Shown: positions 19,220 to 45,039, numbered from the stretch's first letter. The stretch: DNA of 64,000 bases from an archaeon (GCA_027343665.1 DAHWKL010000002.1:193544-257543), one strand, 5' to 3'. Notes: generated from the letters alone by a model not told the origin. Numbers and translations: made by a program.

Positions 19220-21682
19220 TCATTCAAACCAAATCCCGGGCATTCCGGGTTTTGCTTTCTTAGCGCGATCTTCGGGATCAAGTTTCATTGAATCCTTAAC
19301 TGAATAAATAAAAACTTCTTTTCCAAGACCCTTTTCAAGTTTCTTTTTATCAAGTTCCCCTATTTCAAAAGGCAGAACATAAAGGTGAACTTTTGAAATT
19401 TTTTCCCCCCGATCTTCGAGTCTTTTCATTAAAGGAAGAACATTCTCTATAACTTTTTCGTTCATATTGATCCCAGTCCCCTTACTGAGTTCTATTTCTT
19501 TAAATTCCGGCCATGAAGAAGTTGAAACCAGTCCCTTACCCCCAAGTTTTTCCCAAAGCTCTTCAGCAGTATGTGGACAAAATGGGGCTAAAAGCTTCAG
19601 AAAATCCTCAAGAACTTTTTTTCCGAGCTCATTTCCTTTTGACATTTCTTCGAAAAGCTCACGAAGCTCTATTGTAGCTTTCCTGTAATCGAAATTTTCG
19701 ATATATTCTCCTATATCCTTTATCGATTTATTAAGCTTTATCTCAATTTCCAATGGAGTTTTTCCGGTTTTAGTGTTCATGAAAAAGTCATAAACTTTTC
19801 TTATAAATCTAAAACTTCCTTGGATGCCTTTTTCACTCCAGTCAAAATCTTTATCCGGAGAAGCGACTGATACCAGAAACAGCCTGAGTGAATCAGCGCC
19901 ATATTTTTCTATAGTGTCAAGAGGATTAACAACATTTCCCTTGGATTTACTCATCTTATCGCCATCTTCACCATGAAGCATCCCTTGATGGAAAAGTCTA
20001 AGGGCAGGTTCATCAAAATTTACAAGTTCAATGTCCCGCAAAAACTTCACATAATATCTCGAGTATATAAGATGCATGCACGCATGTTCTGCTCCACCGA
20101 TGTAGACATCGGTTGGACACCAATACAAAACTTTTTTCTTATCAAATATTTCCTTATCATTATTTGGATCAGCATAGCGCAGGAAATACCATGAAGAATT
20201 CACAAAAGTATCCATCGTGTCTGTTTCTCTTTTGGCTTTTCCCATGCACCTAGGACATTTCACATTTATCCATTTCTCATTTGTCAAAAGAGGATTTCCT
20301 TCGCCAAATTTCACATCTTTGGGAAGTTTGATAGGAAGATCTTCATAATTAACTGGGACCACACCACATTTTTCACAGTGAATGATTGGAATTGGAGTTC
20401 CCCAATATCTTTGCCTTGAAATCCCCCAATCTTTCAGTCTGAATTGAACAGACTTTTTACCAAGACCTTTTTCTTTGAGAAAATTTGTAACTTCTTCTTT
20501 TGCTTTTTCATTTTCCATACCATTAAATTTTTCGGAATTTATCAGTGTTCCCTCACCTGTATAAGCTTCGGTAAGACTTCTATCATCAAGTTCAAAATCA
20601 ACCGGGTCTATCACAATTTTCATAGGAATATCATATTTTTTTGCAAATTCGTAATCCCTTTTATCATGTGCAGGCACAGCCATAACCATCCCACTCCCGT
20701 AATCAGCTACGACAAAATTACCAATATAGATAGGAACCTTCTCGTGATTAATTGGATTCAGTGCATAAGATCCTGTAAAAGCACCTTCTTTTTCCAATTC
20801 TATAAGGTCTTTCTCCGAAACGGACTTAAGCTTTTTCAAAAAATTATCCACTTCTGTTTTATGCTCCGCAGTCACTAATCTTTTCAGCTCTTTATGGTAA
20901 GGAGAAATAACCACAAAAGTCACCCCATAGATTGTATCTGGTCTTGTTGTGAAGACAGGCCACTTTTTCCCATCCACTTCAAAATCAATTTCCGTTCCGT
21001 AACTTTTTCCTATCCAGTGTTTTTGCATCTGTTTTGTTGTCTCGGGCCAATTCATATTGTCAAGGTTGTCAAGAAGTTCATCAGCATAATTTGTAAGTTT
21101 GAAAAACCATTGTTTGAGATATTTTGATTCAACCGATGTCTTTTCATGTCTCCAGCATTTGCCGTCCACAACTTGTTCATTGGCTAAAACTGTTTTACAT
21201 TCTGGACACCAGTTCACGAGAGACTCTTTCTGGTAAGCAAGTCCTGCTTCAAGCATCTTCAAGAACAACCATTGATCCCATTTATAATATGAAGGGTCTG
21301 AGGTGTCAACAACCCTTGCCCAGTCGTAAGTGAGACCCAATCTCTTCTGTTGCATAACAAAATTTTTGATTGAATTTCTTGTGTAATCCTGCGGATGCGT
21401 CCCTTCCTTTATTGCAGCATTCTCGGCAGGAAGTCCTAAAGCATCAAAGCCGATAGGATGCAAAACATTGTAACCCTGCATGATTTTATATCTAGCAATT
21501 ATATCCCCGATTGTATAATTCAATGCATGACCCATGTGAAGCCCATATCCAGAGGGATAAGGAAACATCTCGAGGGAATAGAATTTCTTTTTTTTTGAAT
21601 CTTCAGAAACATAGAAAGTTTTTTCATCAGCCCATCTTTTCTGCCATTTTTTCTCGATCTTACCAAAATTGAAATCTGCCAT
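19220..21682 (-). CDS. leuS: leucine--tRNA ligase (bacterial-type body, archaeal-like C-terminus)
   Basis: LEMFPYPSG..LHMGH, TTRPDT, DWGISRQRYWGTPIP, YIGGAEHA, KMSKS; ends AKKAKPGMPGIWFE. Confidence 0.96.
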   Translation of the reverse strand: MADFNFGKIEKKWQKRWADEKTFYVSEDSKKKKFYSLEMFPYPSGYGLHMGHALNYTIGDIIARYKIMQGYNVLHPIGFDALGLPAENAAIKEGTHPQDYTRNSIKNFVMQQKRLGLTYDWARVVDTSDPSYYKWDQWLFLKMLEAGLAYQKESLVNWCPECKTVLANEQVVDGKCWRHEKTSVESKYLKQWFFKLTNYADELLDNLDNMNWPETTKQMQKHWIGKSYGTEIDFEVDGKKWPVFTTRPDTIYGVTFVVISPYHKELKRLVTAEHKTEVDNFLKKLKSVSEKDLIELEKEGAFTGSYALNPINHEKVPIYIGNFVVADYGSGMVMAVPAHDKRDYEFAKKYDIPMKIVIDPVDFELDDRSLTEAYTGEGTLINSEKFNGMENEKAKEEVTNFLKEKGLGKKSVQFRLKDWGISRQRYWGTPIPIIHCEKCGVVPVNYEDLPIKLPKDVKFGEGNPLLTNEKWINVKCPRCMGKAKRETDTMDTFVNSSWYFLRYADPNNDKEIFDKKKVLYWCPTDVYIGGAEHACMHLIYSRYYVKFLRDIELVNFDEPALRLFHQGMLHGEDGDKMSKSKGNVVNPLDTIEKYGADSLRLFLVSVASPDKDFDWSEKGIQGSFRFIRKVYDFFMNTKTGKTPLEIEIKLNKSIKDIGEYIENFDYRKATIELRELFEEMSKGNELGKKVLEDFLKLLAPFCPHTAEELWEKLGGKGLVSTSSWPEFKEIELSKGTGINMNEKVIENVLPLMKRLEDRGEKISKVHLYVLPFEIGELDKKKLEKGLGKEVFIYSVKDSMKLDPEDRAKKAKPGMPGIWFE

Positions 21683-38439: not shown

Positions 38440-39363
38440 TTATTTTTTGTGGATTAATTCCTGGTAATATTTTTCAGCTTCGAGAGCTGCCTGGCAACCG
38501 GTTCCTGCTGCGGTTATTGCCTGCTTGTAAATGTGATCTTGAACATCTCCTGCTGCAAAAACCCCTGAAAGATTTGTTCTTCTTCTTTCATCCGTCTTTA
38601 CGAATCCGAATTGATCAAGTTCAATCAAACCATTAAATATATCAACATTTGGAACATGACCTATCGCAAGAAAAACACCATCAATTTTGTGATTTGAAGT
38701 CTCACCGGTCTGCGTATTTTTGATGATAACTTCTTTTAAAGGAGGTTCTCCAACAATACCTGCAATTTCAGAATTCCACATAAAGCCTATTTTAGAGTTG
38801 GATTTTACTTTTTCCTGCATTATTTTACTTGCTTTAAGTTCATCTCTTCTATGAACGATGGTCACTTTTTTTGCAAATTTGGTCAGGAAATTTGCCTCTT
38901 CACATGCACTATCCCCCCCTCCAACAACGAAGATCTCCTTGCCTTTATAGAAAAATCCGTCACATGTGGCACAAGTATGGAGACCGCGACCCTGAAACTT
39001 TTTTTCATTAGGTATGCCAAGCCATCTTGCAGAAGCTCCAGTAGAGATAATTACAACGGGCGAGGTATACTTCTCTTTTCCGACAGAAATTTCGTAACCC
39101 CCCTTAGACTTTTTGAATCCGGTAACACTCTTTTCAATGACTCTTGCGCCGAATTTTTCAGCCTGTTTTTTCATATTTTGAACCAGTTCCGGACCCATTA
39201 TCCCATCGGGAAAACCGGGAAAATTTTCAACAGTTGTGGTCAACATAAGTTGCCCCCCTTCTTCAGCTCCAGTAAAAATAAGAGGTTCGAGTTCAGCTCT
39301 TGCGGCATAGATTGCTGCTGTCCATCCCGAGACTCCTGCGCCTATAATAATCAATTTTTCCAT
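38440..39363 (-). CDS. trxB: thioredoxin-disulfide reductase
   Basis: IIGAG, GGQL..TT.VENFPGF, CATCDG, VGGGDSA, AAGD...QAITAAG. Confidence 0.96.
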   Translation of the reverse strand: MEKLIIIGAGVSGWTAAIYAARAELEPLIFTGAEEGGQLMLTTTVENFPGFPDGIMGPELVQNMKKQAEKFGARVIEKSVTGFKKSKGGYEISVGKEKYTSPVVIISTGASARWLGIPNEKKFQGRGLHTCATCDGFFYKGKEIFVVGGGDSACEEANFLTKFAKKVTIVHRRDELKASKIMQEKVKSNSKIGFMWNSEIAGIVGEPPLKEVIIKNTQTGETSNHKIDGVFLAIGHVPNVDIFNGLIELDQFGFVKTDERRRTNLSGVFAAGDVQDHIYKQAITAAGTGCQAALEAEKYYQELIHKK

Positions 39364-39442
39364 TCCAATCCAACGGAAAAATCATTTAAATATTTTTGTT
39401 AGTATTGAAGAAAACTGCTGAATTTTTGCAGTTGCGCTAAGT

Positions 39443-39976
39443 TCATGGATTGCAGCTGACATCCTCCAAAACCTGGGCGCTGCTGCAAAGAGCAAAATTT
39501 TCAGAGCTTCCCTGTGTCTCAAGTCTTGCGGGTATAATTTCAACTGAATAAATCTTTGTCCCGGCAGAAAGATTAAATATGTTGAGGGATTGCTTTCCAA
39601 GATCAAGCCCTACATTCAGATACCTTTTATTGAAAAGTATATAACTCTGCACAGTCATGCCGCTTTGATTGGCATTTTTGGCATAATAATTTGAGAGATC
39701 ATAGGTTGCAAGCGTCTGGCTTGCATTCGTAGTTGCATGAATAGTATACCCGCTTACATAGAATTTTCCGTTGTTTTCAAGAGTTATATTAAATTGGTTT
39801 GAAGTACAGTTATATGAATAACTTTTTATGAGGAGGGAAATACCATCTGGACATGAGACCGTATCGGAAGGGACATAAGTTTTAAGATAATTATACACCA
39901 AAACGCTCAAGATTATTCCAAAAGTGATAAGAAGGACATATCCTACTACTACACTTACACCTCTCTTATTTGCCAT
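39443..39976 (-). CDS. archaeal type IV pilin
   Basis: NKRG|VSVVVGYVLLI. Confidence 0.88.
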   Translation of the reverse strand: MANKRGVSVVVGYVLLITFGIILSVLVYNYLKTYVPSDTVSCPDGISLLIKSYSYNCTSNQFNITLENNGKFYVSGYTIHATTNASQTLATYDLSNYYAKNANQSGMTVQSYILFNKRYLNVGLDLGKQSLNIFNLSAGTKIYSVEIIPARLETQGSSENFALCSSAQVLEDVSCNP

Positions 39977-40054
39977 AATGAGAAAAAGCTCCCCAATTTT
40001 ATAAACTTATTTGGCGGATGTAGAAACTCTTATAAGGGAAGCCGGAGTTTAAAA

Positions 40055-40759
40055 TTGATGGAGATAGAACCAGGAGATATCCTTGTATGCACTGTTGACA
40101 AAATAGTTGGTACAGTCGTTTTTGTGGATATAGAGGGTACTGATAAAAAAGGAACAATAATTTTTAGTGAAGTTGCCGCAGGGAGGATAAGAAATCTCCG
40201 AGATTATGTAGTCCCAAAAAAAGTAATAATATGCAAAGTTCTGAGGGTAATAAATGATCATGTAGAATTGTCTTTGAGAAGGGTACGCGACAAAGAGAAA
40301 AAAGAAGCGCTCGAAAGAAGTAAATTGGAAAAAAGTTCATTAAGCATATTAAAATCAATCTTAAAGGACAGGACAATAGAATTGATAAAAAAGATAGAAG
40401 AGAAAACTTCGATACATGAATTCCTCGAAGAAGCGAAGAATGATCCAAAGGACTTGAAAAAGATTGTTGGAGAGGAAGACGCAAAGAAGATAATGGAAAT
40501 TATCATGAAACAAAAAGAGAAGAAAGTCTATCTAAAAAAAGAGATTCATTTAGTCTCAAAGAGTCCAGAAGGACTTAAAATCATAAAAGAAGTCTTATCT
40601 GAAGACGGAAAAGTCACAATAAAATATCTCGCAGCAGGAAGGTATTCAATCAATTCGGAAGGAGAGAGTTTAAAAAAAGCTGATCAGAGGATAAGAGAGA
40701 CCATTGATAGGATAGAAAAGTCCGCAAAAAAGAAAGATTTGGAATTTTCGTATGATTAA
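40055..40759 (+). CDS. eif2a: translation initiation factor aIF2 alpha
   Basis: S1 domain SEVAAGRIRNLRDYV, ELSLRRV; C-terminal YLAAGRY. Confidence 0.9.
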   Translation: MMEIEPGDILVCTVDKIVGTVVFVDIEGTDKKGTIIFSEVAAGRIRNLRDYVVPKKVIICKVLRVINDHVELSLRRVRDKEKKEALERSKLEKSSLSILKSILKDRTIELIKKIEEKTSIHEFLEEAKNDPKDLKKIVGEEDAKKIMEIIMKQKEKKVYLKKEIHLVSKSPEGLKIIKEVLSEDGKVTIKYLAAGRYSINSEGESLKKADQRIRETIDRIEKSAKKKDLEFSYD

Positions 40760-40818
40760 GCAAATATCACTAAAAAAAGATAAGAAATACTTAAATACCC
40801 TAATTTTTATAAAGAGTC

Positions 40819-41211
40819 ATGGAAAGCGCTAAGTTTAAAGTGAAGATAGTTGGAGTCATTTTTGATCCAAAAAAGAGAAAGATACTTATTGGGAAAGGAA
40901 AAGGAGAGAAAAGATACTCTTTCCTTGAAGGAAACCTTGTTCCTGAAGAAGAAATAGATAAGGAATTAAAAAGATTAACAAAGGAAAAGACAGGTTTCAT
41001 AATACACAATCTCGGAACCATTTACTCTGAGAATGCCCTTCCGGATAAAGAAGAAATTAAAATCTATTTCCTGTGCGAAGCGACTGAAGGAGAAGAAAAA
41101 AAAGGTCAAAATGTAGAAGAGCTCGTGTGGATAAAACCTTCAGAAGCAGAGAAAAAACTTGAAGTGAAATTCCCCACAAGATTAAGGGAATTCGTGACAG
41201 GATTACAATAA
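40819..41211 (+). CDS. Nudix-fold protein with degenerate Nudix box
   Basis: KILIGK...EGNLVPEEEIDKELKRLTKEKTG...EELVWIK. Confidence 0.78.
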   Translation: MESAKFKVKIVGVIFDPKKRKILIGKGKGEKRYSFLEGNLVPEEEIDKELKRLTKEKTGFIIHNLGTIYSENALPDKEEIKIYFLCEATEGEEKKGQNVEELVWIKPSEAEKKLEVKFPTRLREFVTGLQ

Positions 41212-41215
41212 TCTC

Positions 41216-41347
41216 ATGAAACTGAAAAAGTGCAAGAATTGTTCTTCATACACCTTAAAAGAAGAATGCGGGAAGTGCAGCGGAAAAACTAGCGATGCTC
41301 ATTACAAATTTATAAAGCCTGGAATGAAAAGAATTTTTACTGAATGA
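41216..41347 (+). CDS. nop10: Nop10-like zinc-ribbon protein (43 aa)
   Basis: Hand translation MKLKKCKNCSSYTLKEECGKCSGKTSDAHYKF...; conserved position after aIF2-alpha. Confidence 0.8.
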   Translation: MKLKKCKNCSSYTLKEECGKCSGKTSDAHYKFIKPGMKRIFTE

Positions 41348-41390
41348 AGCCCGGGAAAACTTATATAGAGTAGTATATTGAATTTTATGT

Positions 41391-43241
41391 ATGGATTCAG
41401 AAGACAAAAAGAGCATATTTTCGCTCCTGCAAAAAAGCAGATATTCTGAAGGTCAGACCGATCTTATAAAAAAAACTCTTGCTTATCTTGATGAGAAAAA
41501 TTCAAAAAACGTAAAGGCGATTTCTGAAATATTAAAATATCTCACTGGAATGGAAGTAGACAAAAGCGGGATCATTGCAGGACTCCTCGTTATGGATTAT
41601 GAAGATGCAGACAAAAAAAAGATAAAAGAGGATTTTGGTGAAGAAGTTCTGGAAATTCTTGAAGAAAAAACGAAGCTATCTAATATCATATCTAAATCAA
41701 AAGAAAAAAACGAGTTTACCAGGGAAGTCATTATTTCATCAGCGGATTATATAGAGTCTATAATTCTTGAACTGATAACTAAACTTGTCTTGCTAAAAGA
41801 TTCATCAGACAAAGAACTAGCAAAACTCGCTATGGAAGATTATGCACCTCTTGCTAACAGGCTTGGTTTTGAAAAGATAAAGAAAGAGATAATAAATAAT
41901 TCATTCAGGATCCTTAATCCAAAGAAATATGAAGAGATCTCTAAATTTTTAAAAATGTCCGAAAAGGAAAGAGAGAATTATATAAAAAAGACCATCGAAG
42001 AATTGAAATATTATATAGGAAAAAGCATAAAGAGCTTTGAGATAAAAGGGAGAGAGAAACAGATTTACAGCATTTACGAAAAGATAACAAAAAGGAAAGT
42101 TCCATTAAATGAACAAAAAGACCAATTTGGGATAAGGATTATAACGAATTCGGCCGAAGATTGTTATAAAGCTTTTGAAATTCTCGGGGAGAGGTACCCC
42201 GTACTTGAAGAGACGGTGAAAGACTATATAAAAGAACCAAAAAAAAATGGATATCAGTCCCTGCATTTTTGCATAAGGAAAAATGACAAAATCATTGAAG
42301 TGCAGGTAAGGACAAAAGAGATGGATGAAATAGCGGAAGAAGGTGCCGCATCACATTGGGCTTACAAAAAAATTAGCGGAGATATAAAATTTGAGAAGAA
42401 AACTGCATGGTACAAAGAACTGCTTAAGCTCAAAGACAAAAAAAGTTCGATGCTAGACGGTCTTAAGATAGGACTTTTCAAAGACAAGATTTATTGCTAT
42501 ACTCCAAAAGGGAAAATGATTCAGCTCCCGATTGGTTCGACTGCTCTTGACTTCGCTTATAGCATCCATGCCCAGATAGGAAATAGTTCTGTCGGAGCAA
42601 AAGTTAATGACAAATTTGCCCCGTTAAAAACTGAATTGAAAAATGGAGACAGTGTGGAGATTTTGACAAACAAATTTCAAAGACCAAGGAGGGATTGGCT
42701 CAAATTCGTAAAGACAAAATATGCAAAAAAGATTATAGCTAAGGAAATCAAAAAAATAGAAAATATCCCGGTCCCGAATATAAAAAATAGAGAAGAAGAA
42801 AATGAAGAGGGAATTGAAATTCCTGCGGTAATACCTGATTTCCCAAGCCATATATTAAACTTCGCAAAATGCTGCAACCCTCTCCCGGGAGATGAAATTA
42901 CGGGGATATTAAGATCTTATAAAAGGGCACTCGTGCACAAAAAAAAGTGTGAAAGAATAGGCGATGCAAGAAAAAATGAAGTAAAGGCTGAATGGAAGGA
43001 TAAATTTGAAGATCCGATAAAAGTTTTCGTCGCGACATCAGACAGATCCGGTATTCTCGCTGATATAATAAACACAATCTCAAGGAAAGGGTTCAAAATA
43101 ACAGAAGCCAATGGGAAGCTCACAGGAAATAACACTGCAGAATGCTATTTCGTGGTGTCCATTAATGAGCTTAAAGATTTAAAAGAAGTCATATCAGGAA
43201 TAAAAAAAATAAAAGATGTGAGAAAAATATGGCTTGATTGA
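41391..43241 (+). CDS. long RelA/SpoT homologue (pseudo-HD, SYNTH, TGS, ZFD, ACT)
   Basis: YAPLANRLG, GREKQIYSI, KDYIKEPKKNGYQSLH, EVQVRT, GAASHWAYK, TPKG..LP..STALDFAY, AKCCNPLPGD, DRSGILADI. Confidence 0.93.
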   Translation: MDSEDKKSIFSLLQKSRYSEGQTDLIKKTLAYLDEKNSKNVKAISEILKYLTGMEVDKSGIIAGLLVMDYEDADKKKIKEDFGEEVLEILEEKTKLSNIISKSKEKNEFTREVIISSADYIESIILELITKLVLLKDSSDKELAKLAMEDYAPLANRLGFEKIKKEIINNSFRILNPKKYEEISKFLKMSEKERENYIKKTIEELKYYIGKSIKSFEIKGREKQIYSIYEKITKRKVPLNEQKDQFGIRIITNSAEDCYKAFEILGERYPVLEETVKDYIKEPKKNGYQSLHFCIRKNDKIIEVQVRTKEMDEIAEEGAASHWAYKKISGDIKFEKKTAWYKELLKLKDKKSSMLDGLKIGLFKDKIYCYTPKGKMIQLPIGSTALDFAYSIHAQIGNSSVGAKVNDKFAPLKTELKNGDSVEILTNKFQRPRRDWLKFVKTKYAKKIIAKEIKKIENIPVPNIKNREEENEEGIEIPAVIPDFPSHILNFAKCCNPLPGDEITGILRSYKRALVHKKKCERIGDARKNEVKAEWKDKFEDPIKVFVATSDRSGILADIINTISRKGFKITEANGKLTGNNTAECYFVVSINELKDLKEVISGIKKIKDVRKIWLD

Positions 43242-43290
43242 TTGTTTTCCGATGTAATTAATTATAAATTAAAAAAATGAATACTTCAAT

Positions 43291-43698
43291 ATGATTGCAA
43301 AAAAACCGGTAATTTATGTGAAAGAATTCACCTCTGAAACGCACTGCAATGACACATCCTTTCACGGAAGCCCTAATATAAGATCATCTCAGGGAATAAG
43401 CAAAGAAGATAAAGAATTAAGGAAAGCAATCATTTCAAAATATTCTTTTAATGTTAAGAATTACTCAAAATGTAATGAGGAACATGAAGGGTTTGATGGA
43501 AGAGAACAATATACCTTCAGGATTTTTTCTGAATTTCCTGAAGGAACACAAGACAATCCTGGGACCAATGTAAAGTATAAAACTCTATTTTCAATAACCA
43601 AGTGTGGAAGCCCGCAGGATGTCAGATTAAATCGGGTTTCTGATCTTGAAGAAGAACTTTTATCAAATAAATTTGAAAAAGTGAAACTCGAAGATTAA
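43291..43698 (+). CDS. hypothetical protein
   Basis: 135-aa ORF, TATA-like TTATAAA upstream. Confidence 0.6.
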   Translation: MIAKKPVIYVKEFTSETHCNDTSFHGSPNIRSSQGISKEDKELRKAIISKYSFNVKNYSKCNEEHEGFDGREQYTFRIFSEFPEGTQDNPGTNVKYKTLFSITKCGSPQDVRLNRVSDLEEELLSNKFEKVKLED

Positions 43699-44291
43699 AA
43701 CAATGTTTTCTGCACTGAATTTTCTTTTATCTCTTTTTTAACAATTTCCATATCTTTTTCCCACAAAGGAAGAAGAGACTGTTTGTAGATTATAGCCGCA
43801 GGATGGAAAAGAGGAATGAGCTTAACTTCCATACCATTTATCTTTACAGTCCTTACTTTCCCATGAAGATTAGTGATTCCCGGTTGTTTGTCCATCTCAT
43901 CAACATTGCACCCTGAGAAGAAAAATTTTGTAGCATAATTCCCGAGCGAACATATGACTTTTGGTTTTATCTCCTTTATCTGTTCTAAAAGCCAGGGTGT
44001 ATGAGCTTTTATTTCATCAGGTAATGGATCTCTGTTTTCGGGGGGGCGGCACTTCAGAATGTTGGCAATATAAACATCTTCCAATGAAAGCCCAACTTTT
44101 TTCAAAAGTTCATCCAGGTTCTTTCCGGCCTTGCCAACAAAAGGTATTCCTTGCAAGTCTTCTTCTCTTCCTGGGGCCTCACCAACAAAAAGAATTTTGG
44201 CTTTGATATTCCCTTTCCCAATAACAATATTTGTACATCTTTTGCAGATTTCTGTCGTTTTCACAAGTCTGACATACTCTGGTTCATCCAT
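43695..44291 (-). CDS. uracil-DNA glycosylase family 4
   Basis: GEAPG..ED..G.PFVG, NILKCRPP.NR, HPA. Confidence 0.93.
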   Translation of the reverse strand: MDEPEYVRLVKTTEICKRCTNIVIGKGNIKAKILFVGEAPGREEDLQGIPFVGKAGKNLDELLKKVGLSLEDVYIANILKCRPPENRDPLPDEIKAHTPWLLEQIKEIKPKVICSLGNYATKFFFSGCNVDEMDKQPGITNLHGKVRTVKINGMEVKLIPLFHPAAIIYKQSLLPLWEKDMEIVKKEIKENSVQKTLF

Positions 44292-44339
44292 TGAAAAATA
44301 AAAACAAATCTTTTTAAATAAATTTTCTTTTGAAATTAC

Positions 44340-44918
44340 ATGGAAAGAACTTTAGTACTAATAAAACCTGACGGAGTTCAAAGAGGCCTTGTCGGAGAGA
44401 TAATAAAAAGATTTGAGAATACTGGGCTCAAGATTATCGGCATGAAAATGGTTTATGCTGATGAAGATAAAGCTTCGAAACATTATGCAGATGATGAGGA
44501 ATGGCTGAAAAGCGTAGGAGAGAAGACTCTCAGATCGGCAGAGAAAAAAGGGATAAAGATAGAAAGAACCGCCATTGAGCAAGGCCGCTGGATAAGAGAA
44601 ATGCTTATGAGTTATCTTACGATGAGTCCCCTGGTTGCGTTGGCTCTTGAGGGAAATGAGGCAGTCTCAAAAGTAAGGATGATAACAGGGCCAACTAACC
44701 CGCAAGAAGCCCTGCCCGGAACTATAAGGGGGGATTTTTCGGTTGATTCATATATGCTGGGAGATTCACTTGAAAGGCCAATACAAAATTTGATTCATGC
44801 TTCAGAAAGTCCTAAAGAAGCTGAAAGAGAATTAAAAATATGGTTCAATGACAAAGAGTTGCATTTTTTCAAAAGGGTTGACGAAGATTTGATTTACAGA
44901 AGGGGAAGCAAAAAATAA
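44340..44918 (+). CDS. ndk: nucleoside diphosphate kinase
   Basis: ERTLVLIKPDGVQR, PGTIRGDF, NLIHASE. Confidence 0.95.
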   Translation: MERTLVLIKPDGVQRGLVGEIIKRFENTGLKIIGMKMVYADEDKASKHYADDEEWLKSVGEKTLRSAEKKGIKIERTAIEQGRWIREMLMSYLTMSPLVALALEGNEAVSKVRMITGPTNPQEALPGTIRGDFSVDSYMLGDSLERPIQNLIHASESPKEAERELKIWFNDKELHFFKRVDEDLIYRRGSKK

Positions 44919-44967
44919 TTTTCGGAATCAAAACCTTTAATTAACCAGAGATTTCTTAATCTATTGT

Positions 44968-45039
44968 GTCCCCATAGTTCAACGGACAGAACATAGCGTT
45001 GCGGTCGCTAAAATCGGGGTTCAATTCCTCGTGGGGATG
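44968..45039 (+). tRNA. tRNA-Arg(GCG)
   Basis: GTCCCCA/TGGGGAT acceptor, TAGCG-TTGCGGT-CGCTA anticodon arm. Confidence 0.92.

Follow-up and report, generated by a model that had tools for sequence, protein, structure and literature searches.

A compact long RelA/SpoT homologue with a predicted synthetase and a degenerate hydrolase domain in an archaeal genome

A gene encoding a long RelA/SpoT homologue (RSH) was analyzed in a 64,000-nt stretch of DNA from a DPANN archaeon, referred to here as the window, in which all positions are counted from the first letter. The RSH gene (41391..43241, + strand) encodes a protein of 616 amino acids (aa) with a degenerate hydrolase domain, a synthetase (SYNTH) domain, a TGS domain, a zinc-finger domain and an ACT domain. 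The protein is likely to be a compact monofunctional RSH of type [hS] that makes (p)ppGpp and goes back to one old acquisition of a Rel gene, with its product removed by a separate small alarmone hydrolase (SAH). An initial annotation, made from the sequence, had noticed a synthetase-only RelA-like gene at this place, and this observation was confirmed.

The open reading frame (ORF), Pfam matches and alignments with a structure database bear out the proposed 616-aa protein with SYNTH, TGS, Cys/His zinc-finger and ACT domains. All domains lie on the + strand. Residues 1–200 (41391..41990) form an HD_4-like pseudo-hydrolase domain, and the HD_4 profile matches residues 40–160 with 45.8 bits (cut-off 27.2; E 7.1e-12). 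The SYNTH domain (RelA_SpoT, PF04607; residues 220–327; 42048..42371) reaches 115.7 bits (cut-off 27; E 1.7e-33), and the TGS domain (PF02824; residues 367–426; 42489..42668) scores 70.3 bits against a cut-off of 22.2 (E 1.4e-19). Based on length comparison and a structural model, a shortened linker (residues 437–486; 42699..42848) replaces the alpha-helical (AH) domain. The zinc-finger domain (ZFD, or RIS; residues 487–535; 42849..42995), with C494, C495, H516 and C520, was located by alignment with residues 605–638 of Escherichia coli RelA. The ACT domain (also RRM; ACT_4, PF13291; residues 544–613; 43020..43229) reaches 45.4 bits (cut-off 27; E 1.3e-11) and shows a beta-alpha-beta-beta-alpha-beta order in the model. 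The nearest solved structures are those of Bacillus subtilis Rel (6yxa, E 1e-81) and E. coli RelA (5iqr, E 1.4e-81). The bifunctional B. subtilis Rel is the best sequence match and has the same order of HD-like, SYNTH, TGS, zinc-finger and ACT domains.

The hydrolase domain has lost key residues. V67 and M68 of the RSH align with H77 and D78 of B. subtilis Rel, so that the catalytic His-Asp pair is replaced, and the next Glu-Asp is retained. The loop bearing the first metal-binding His, which is present in HD-intact relatives, is deleted from the N-terminus. The absence of a hydrolase HD motif, as first proposed, thus holds. Since both the His-Asp dyad and the first metal-binding His are missing, the RSH is assigned to type [hS] and not to the bifunctional type [HS].

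The synthetase domain, on the other hand, is predicted to be active. In the alignment, D244 and E303 take the positions of D264 and E324 in B. subtilis Rel. In this enzyme, the Asp and the Glu are catalytic, and Arg and Lys residues bind phosphate. Twelve SYNTH residues (G220, R221, K223, S227, K231, D244, R249, Y288, H292, E303, Q305 and R307) are invariant in 22 close relatives, as are the TGS His (H393) and the zinc-finger residues C494, C495, H516 and C520. In a wider set of 109 sequences, H393, C495, H516 and C520 remain invariant together with most of the residues that are invariant in the 22 relatives. The RSH is probably an active (p)ppGpp synthetase, which would transfer pyrophosphate from ATP to the 3'-OH of GDP or GTP and would be unable to degrade its product.

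The distribution of conservation along the protein differs between domains. In the clade of the window (P0001–P0018), the mean pairwise identity is 44% for the pseudo-HD domain, 64% for SYNTH, 72% for TGS, 62.5% for the ZFD and 59% for ACT, making TGS the most conserved and pseudo-HD the least conserved domain. In the HD-intact short forms, the corresponding values are 57% for HD and 62% for SYNTH. Judged from these identities, constraint is relaxed on the hydrolase domain of the window's clade and not on the remaining domains. The strongly conserved TGS, zinc-finger and ACT domains hint that the protein senses uncharged tRNA, the ribosome or a small ligand.

The RSH had been described as full-length. 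This description is an overstatement. A total of 236 related proteins were fetched as a nearest-match sample, not a census, and comprise 170 short forms (<680 aa) and 66 bacterial-length forms. The stretch corresponding to W436–H487, between TGS and the zinc finger, has a median length of 50 residues (46–53) in the short forms and 119.5 residues (117–137) in the longer ones. Thus, the helical domain is shorter by approximately 70 residues in 170/170 short forms, leaving about 50 residues where bacterial Rel has about 120. The AH-domain family PF19296 (RelA_AH_RIS) appears in the Pfam lists of the 711–736-aa proteins and in none of those of the short forms.

An AlphaFold2 (AF2) model of the RSH was obtained with a predicted local distance difference test score (pLDDT) of 88.5 and a predicted template modelling score (pTM) of 0.82. 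Residues 3–210 are all-helical in the model and align with the N-terminal halves of Rel structures. At the site of the AH domain, the model contains one helix (443–457) and a low-confidence loop. The top Foldseek matches are ribosome-bound RelA, full-length SpoT and B. subtilis Rel. The model adopts a compact conformation. Globally, it is matched best by full-length SpoT off the ribosome, with a template modelling (TM) score of 0.55, compared to 0.39 for ribosome-bound RelA.

These features bear on the signal that activates the enzyme, which is the most conjectural part of the system. Tentatively, the RSH could belong to a vertically inherited alarmone circuit of DPANN archaea in which it reads uncharged tRNA on the archaeal ribosome, an SAH resets the system, and the deletion of the AH domain fits the geometry of that ribosome. 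It is also possible, though less likely than not, that (p)ppGpp is made and that synthesis is not switched on by ribosomes with uncharged tRNA, the C-terminal domains being autoinhibitory or sensing a ligand or protein. Such C-terminal roles have been described for SpoT-like and some Rel enzymes. Under this alternative, the loss in the helical domain, seen in all 170 short forms and matched by their Pfam lists, would mirror release from ribosome binding, and the closer match of the compact model to SpoT off the ribosome points the same way. So do four genomes of the order with RSHs of 410–465 aa that have no zinc finger or ACT domain. However, the predicted compact state is uninformative on behaviour at the ribosome. 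The TGS domain is the best conserved part of the protein, and its H393, invariant in the 109 sequences, aligns with H432 of E. coli RelA, the residue that contacts the tRNA 3' end. The zinc-finger Cys and His residues are also kept, and K511, a basic residue, occupies the position of R629 of E. coli RelA.

The 410–465-aa forms (loci L073, L074, L075 and L079 in genomes G185, G123, G182 and G054, respectively) end after the TGS domain. Their His-Asp pair is lost too, and their ORFs are not cut by contig ends.

It is unlikely that the RSH fold serves here for the synthesis of (p)ppApp, for pyrophosphorylation of another nucleotide or of tRNA, or for non-catalytic regulation. The RSH has TVKD at the position of the RXKD/EXDD motif, which fits neither of these named classes exactly, and some toxic small alarmone synthetases with an RSH fold make ppApp or modify tRNA. 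Such activities, however, are known from small single-domain synthetases and not from long RSHs. All residues common to the solved (p)ppGpp-forming long RSHs are kept, TVKD is closer to the Rel type, and the partner found in relatives comes from the (p)ppGpp-hydrolase family HD_4.

The relatives of the RSH point to a stepwise history. The best 120 matches in the protein search are 516–671 aa long, share 35–70% identity with the RSH, and are archaeal wherever the source names them. Their alignment forms a gradient. The most distant members keep the full metal-binding loop together with His-Asp and Glu-Asp, intermediate members have Tyr-Gly or His-Gly at the His-Asp site, and the nearest relatives are also without the N-terminal loop. 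A second search, from the HD-intact member P0103, reached Firmicute-type Rel proteins of 711–736 aa that contain PF19296. His-Asp is kept in 67 and lost in 103 of the 170 short forms and is kept in 66/66 bacterial-length forms.

A maximum-likelihood tree was constructed from 83 rows, drawn from the short forms (60 of 170), the long forms (11 of 66) and the bacterial loci (12 of 43). All 60 short-form rows are placed on one side of a branch with an SH-aLRT support of 99, adjoining 11 Firmicute-like Rel rows (support 95), and Firmicute Rel is the sister group of the archaeal family. Within this family, the His-Asp-intact rows branch first, and 34 rows form a hydrolase-dead clade on a branch of length 0.69 with a support of 100. 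The RSH of the window is located at the tip of this nested clade. The tree indicates that the hydrolase was lost inside the archaeal clade, independently of the loss in E. coli RelA.

We propose that one old acquisition of a bifunctional, Firmicute-like Rel founded the archaeal (DPANN) family. The family would have dropped approximately 70 residues of the helical domain between TGS and the zinc finger. A sub-lineage would next have lost the hydrolase residues, and the N-terminal metal-binding loop afterwards. Compared to Firmicute Rel, the RSH has no His-Asp, no N-terminal metal loop and some 70 fewer helical residues, with a total length of 616 aa against 711–736 aa. It resembles E. coli RelA (5iqr, 5kps) in having a dead hydrolase domain beside a synthetase, predicted to be live in the RSH, with hydrolysis left to another protein, and the TGS His and the zinc-finger Cys and His residues of the two align. 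In contrast to E. coli RelA, it lies outside the RelA subfamily, its hydrolase loss is independent, and its presumed partner is a small HD-only hydrolase rather than a SpoT paralogue.

The initial annotation had proposed that hydrolysis is carried out by a separate enzyme and that small hydrolases should be sought genome-wide. An HD_4 search in the genomes behind five related loci detected a separate ORF of 184–206 aa in 5/5 genomes and the RSH's own domain in 4/5 (not in G003). Among relatives overall, HD_4-only proteins range in size from 172 to 206 aa and have intact metal-binding and catalytic motifs (His, His-Asp and Asp). In the window's clade, such ORFs, of 184–206 aa, were found in six genomes (G001, G002, G003, G004, G005 and G144). 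These motifs are shared with known SAHs of the Mesh1 and Mesh1-L types. Unlike known SAHs, the HD_4-only proteins accompany a long [hS] RSH in an archaeon, and they were not found in every related genome.

Of 300 genomes sampled from the order, 31 gave a match to HD_4, 43 to RelA_SpoT, and 17 had a long RSH. The presence of a separate SAH was surveyed in 18 genomes with a long RSH, namely these 17 and G004, for which completeness is not given. A separate SAH occurs in 6/7 genomes of the window's clade (not found in G101), 1/4 genomes of the next full-length hydrolase-dead group (G202), 0/1 for G027, 0/4 genomes with the 410–465-aa forms without zinc finger and ACT, and 0/2 genomes with HD-intact forms. 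From these counts, a separate hydrolase is well supported in the window's clade and is no general rule. The proposal of a separate enzyme is therefore plausible for the clade, but it does not extend across the order. Alarmone breakdown in the organism of the window would fall to an SAH encoded elsewhere in its genome.

Two side observations concern this hydrolase. In G202 (L077, 7513..10676, − strand), a hydrolase-dead RSH gene is preceded, two genes upstream and on its own strand, by a gene for an intact 179-aa HD hydrolase, with a 175-aa ORF in between, and this may be a make-and-break cluster. In the SAH family search, the member closest to the SAH of G001 is P0238, with 82% identity, for which no link to the genome of the window could be made.

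Several points weigh against a monofunctional (p)ppGpp synthetase of single origin paired with a separate hydrolase. The RSH scores below the whole-protein cut-off of NCBIfam TIGR00691 (spoT_relA; 412.2 versus 499.2 bits), and it is also below the subfamily cut-offs of NF008124 for RelA (296.1 versus 728 bits) and NF008303 for SpoT (289.6 versus 947 bits). Such scores are in keeping with a divergent and shortened protein that belongs to neither of the proteobacterial subfamilies, RelA and SpoT. The helical domain is mostly gone, and therefore bacterial-style docking to the ribosome cannot be assumed. The tree comes from a quick search with SH-aLRT support only, a chosen outgroup and a biased bacterial sample without E. 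coli RelA and SpoT, and only part of its archaeal rows are named by source, the others being labelled by length and domain content. No SAH was found in 8/9 of the other genomes in which His-Asp is lost (G194, G198, G239, G027, G054, G123, G182 and G185). Within the 64-kb window itself, tblastn with the SAHs of five relatives found none (best E 0.57).

The RSH gene is preceded on the same strand by three genes, in agreement with the arrangement first described. The aIF2-alpha gene (40055..40759, +) matches PF07541 (E 1.8e-9) and NCBIfam PRK03987 (E 8.4e-29, under the cut-off). It is followed by a gene for a Nudix-fold protein with a degenerate Nudix box (40819..41211, +; PF00293, 27.8 bits, cut-off 21.1) and by a gene for a 43-aa Nop10 (41216..41347, +). 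The latter matches PRK13130 with E 3e-8 and 33.6 bits, under the cut-off of 68, with residues 1–29 covering profile positions 3–31 of 56. The RSH gene starts 43 nt behind Nop10. A uracil-DNA glycosylase (UDG) family gene (43695..44291, −; PF03167, E 2.3e-36) forms the right flank of the site.

The block in front of the RSH is older than the RSH at this place. The Nudix gene is present in 111 of 300 genomes of the order. Of the 30 loci with the best Nudix matches, 29 have aIF2-alpha next to the Nudix gene, 27 have Nop10 after it (tblastn), and only six have an RSH behind. Because Nop10 directly abuts UDG(−) in five RSH-less loci (L089, L090, L093, L102 and L109), the RSH is seen as an insertion into an older block at a junction of converging genes. 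RSHs with ≤46% identity have other neighbours.

A TATA-like heptamer (41362..41368, +), read from the sequence, ends 22 nt before the ATG of the RSH and is a putative promoter. A like heptamer is found 20–22 nt before the ATG in 9/11 relatives, though the spacer around it has diverged. The background rate of such a heptamer is 7.6e-4 per position, and the chance figure is only indicative because the loci are related. The RSH is probably transcribed from its own TATA box, and the position of the heptamer would suit a transcript with a short leader or none. In the window's clade, the RSH would thus have been inserted between Nop10 and UDG with a putative promoter of its own.

A functional tie of the alarmone system to aIF2, the Nudix gene and Nop10 through a shared operon is quite improbable. 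It would account for the position of the RSH on the same strand 43 nt behind Nop10, an arrangement found in 11/12 related loci, and translational GTPases are targets of (p)ppGpp in bacteria. Yet the block lacks an RSH behind it at 24 of these 30 Nudix loci, Nop10 abuts UDG(−) in the five RSH-less loci named above, the more distant RSHs sit among other genes, the TATA-like box is conserved, and aIF2-alpha is not the GTP-binding subunit. The suggestion in the initial annotation that aIF2 might be a target finds no backing in this neighbourhood, where the block is conserved with or without an RSH and the RSH is an insertion with its own TATA-like box.

The Nudix-fold protein was modelled with confidence (AF2, pLDDT 93.7), and Foldseek gives TM scores of about 0.75 to NudC/Nudt12, Ap4A hydrolase and RppH. 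Compared to the Nudix box consensus, 31/31 aligned orthologues have other residues in place of the Glu after Arg and of the second member of the Glu-Glu pair, which makes the label pseudo-Nudix a fair one. As an RSH-specific partner or alarmone hydrolase, the Nudix gene is ruled out by its degenerate box and by an occurrence much wider than that of the RSH. The Nudix-fold gene (loci L083–L112) is more conserved than its neighbours, with 57–84% identity in the window's clade, and a role in binding nucleotides or RNA ends is conceivable.

A 135-aa ORF, orf135 (43291..43698, +), is located between RSH and UDG, which are nearly adjacent in related loci. It was rejected as a part of the system because it belongs to no family in Pfam or NCBIfam and tblastn found no counterpart in the 12 related loci, and it is either a strain-specific insertion or not a gene. 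The RSH also matches the PADLOC candidate defence family PDC-S33 (E 3.2e-15), and this match covers only the shared SYNTH region (residues 167–309) and was discarded. A 354–365-aa protein with a weaker RelA_SpoT match is encoded in G005 (L069, 1291..2355) and approximately 22 further genomes of the order and not in the window. It matches PDC-S33 over its full length (E 8.2e-119) and represents a second, unrelated kind of gene with an RSH fold.

The RSH is a genuine archaeal gene and not a contaminant. The window carries RadA (PF08423, E 6.5e-90), aIF2-alpha, Nop10, an archaeal-type RecJ and a FlaI-like ATPase, and the G+C content across the window is even, ranging from 0.33 to 0.40. Positions 39000–45000 are spanned by a single 9,729-nt contig from a different study, which shows 70 differences and two gaps. 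Among species-representative genomes, a scan retrieved 55 RSH loci, 43 of them bacterial and 12 with archaeal titles (Nanoarchaeota, Pacearchaeota, Woesearchaeota or archaeon). Eleven of the 12 archaeal loci have the window's gene order of aIF2-alpha, Nudix, Nop10 and RSH, with RSH identities of 48–70%, and UDG(−) lies 3' of the RSH in 10 of these 11, with NDK next. The twelfth archaeal locus, with an RSH of 46% identity, has different neighbours. Contamination or mis-assembly had been named at the outset as a possible flaw, and both synteny and coverage by another assembly speak for an archaeal gene. The bacterial origin of the family and further bacterial-type genes in the window, such as that for leucyl-tRNA synthetase, could be taken as signs of bacterial contamination, chimeric assembly or a decaying relic, but these readings are very improbable given the independent contig, the shared gene order, the even G+C content, the intact 616-aa frame with constrained domains, and the TATA-like box upstream.

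Two further genes were noted in these comparisons. The leucyl-tRNA synthetase gene (19220..21682, −) is of bacterial type (TIGR00396, 925 bits, cut-off 548) and is another bacterial-derived gene in the window. In a relative (L005, 13434..15941, −), the RadA match is in two pieces approximately 1.45 kb apart, and there may be an intein or insertion in this radA.

The family itself has been encountered in archaea before. The absence of long RSHs was listed as an archaeal feature in the consulted part of Atkinson et al. (2011; PMC3153485). According to the available text of a 2023 review, (p)ppGpp is undescribed in archaea (PMC10249747), and the enzymes are rare there (PMC10249747, PMC3153485). 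In the accessible part of an mSystems paper of 2021, RelA/SpoT is reported in 69.0% of Diapherotrites, 41.7% of Woesearchaeota, 21.3% of Pacearchaeota and 19.0% of Nanoarchaeota genomes, and a bacterial origin is predicted for it (PMC8407392). As far as that text goes, the DPANN RelA/SpoT genes are the same gene family in the same archaea as the RSH described here, and the same portion makes no mention of a dead hydrolase, a missing helical domain, a separate SAH or an insertion site. In the parts of the literature on DPANN RSHs and alarmones that were covered, the missing helical domain, the stepwise loss of the hydrolase, the SAH and the insertion site were not found; Fig. S34 of PMC8407392 and a census (bioRxiv 10.1101/575399) may list archaeal long RSHs. 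The novelty assumed in the initial annotation is weakened by these DPANN RelA/SpoT genes, in print since 2021 (PMC8407392).

The value of the finding is tempered by this earlier publication of the family in DPANN archaea, by an uncultured host and by an RSH activity that is predicted. Nevertheless, an HD-intact form, a hydrolase-dead form and a matching small hydrolase from one archaeal lineage are clonable proteins, and they could be used to probe whether alarmone synthesis, and possibly ribosome-coupled sensing of starvation, exists in Archaea. The deleted helical domain is a natural experiment on the parts that a long RSH requires. The independent loss of the hydrolase together with a separate hydrolase parallels the division of labour between RelA and SpoT. 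If the tentative circuit with the archaeal ribosome is true, it would represent a stringent response in Archaea that arose by subfunctionalisation of a bifunctional Rel, independently of the proteobacterial RelA/SpoT split.

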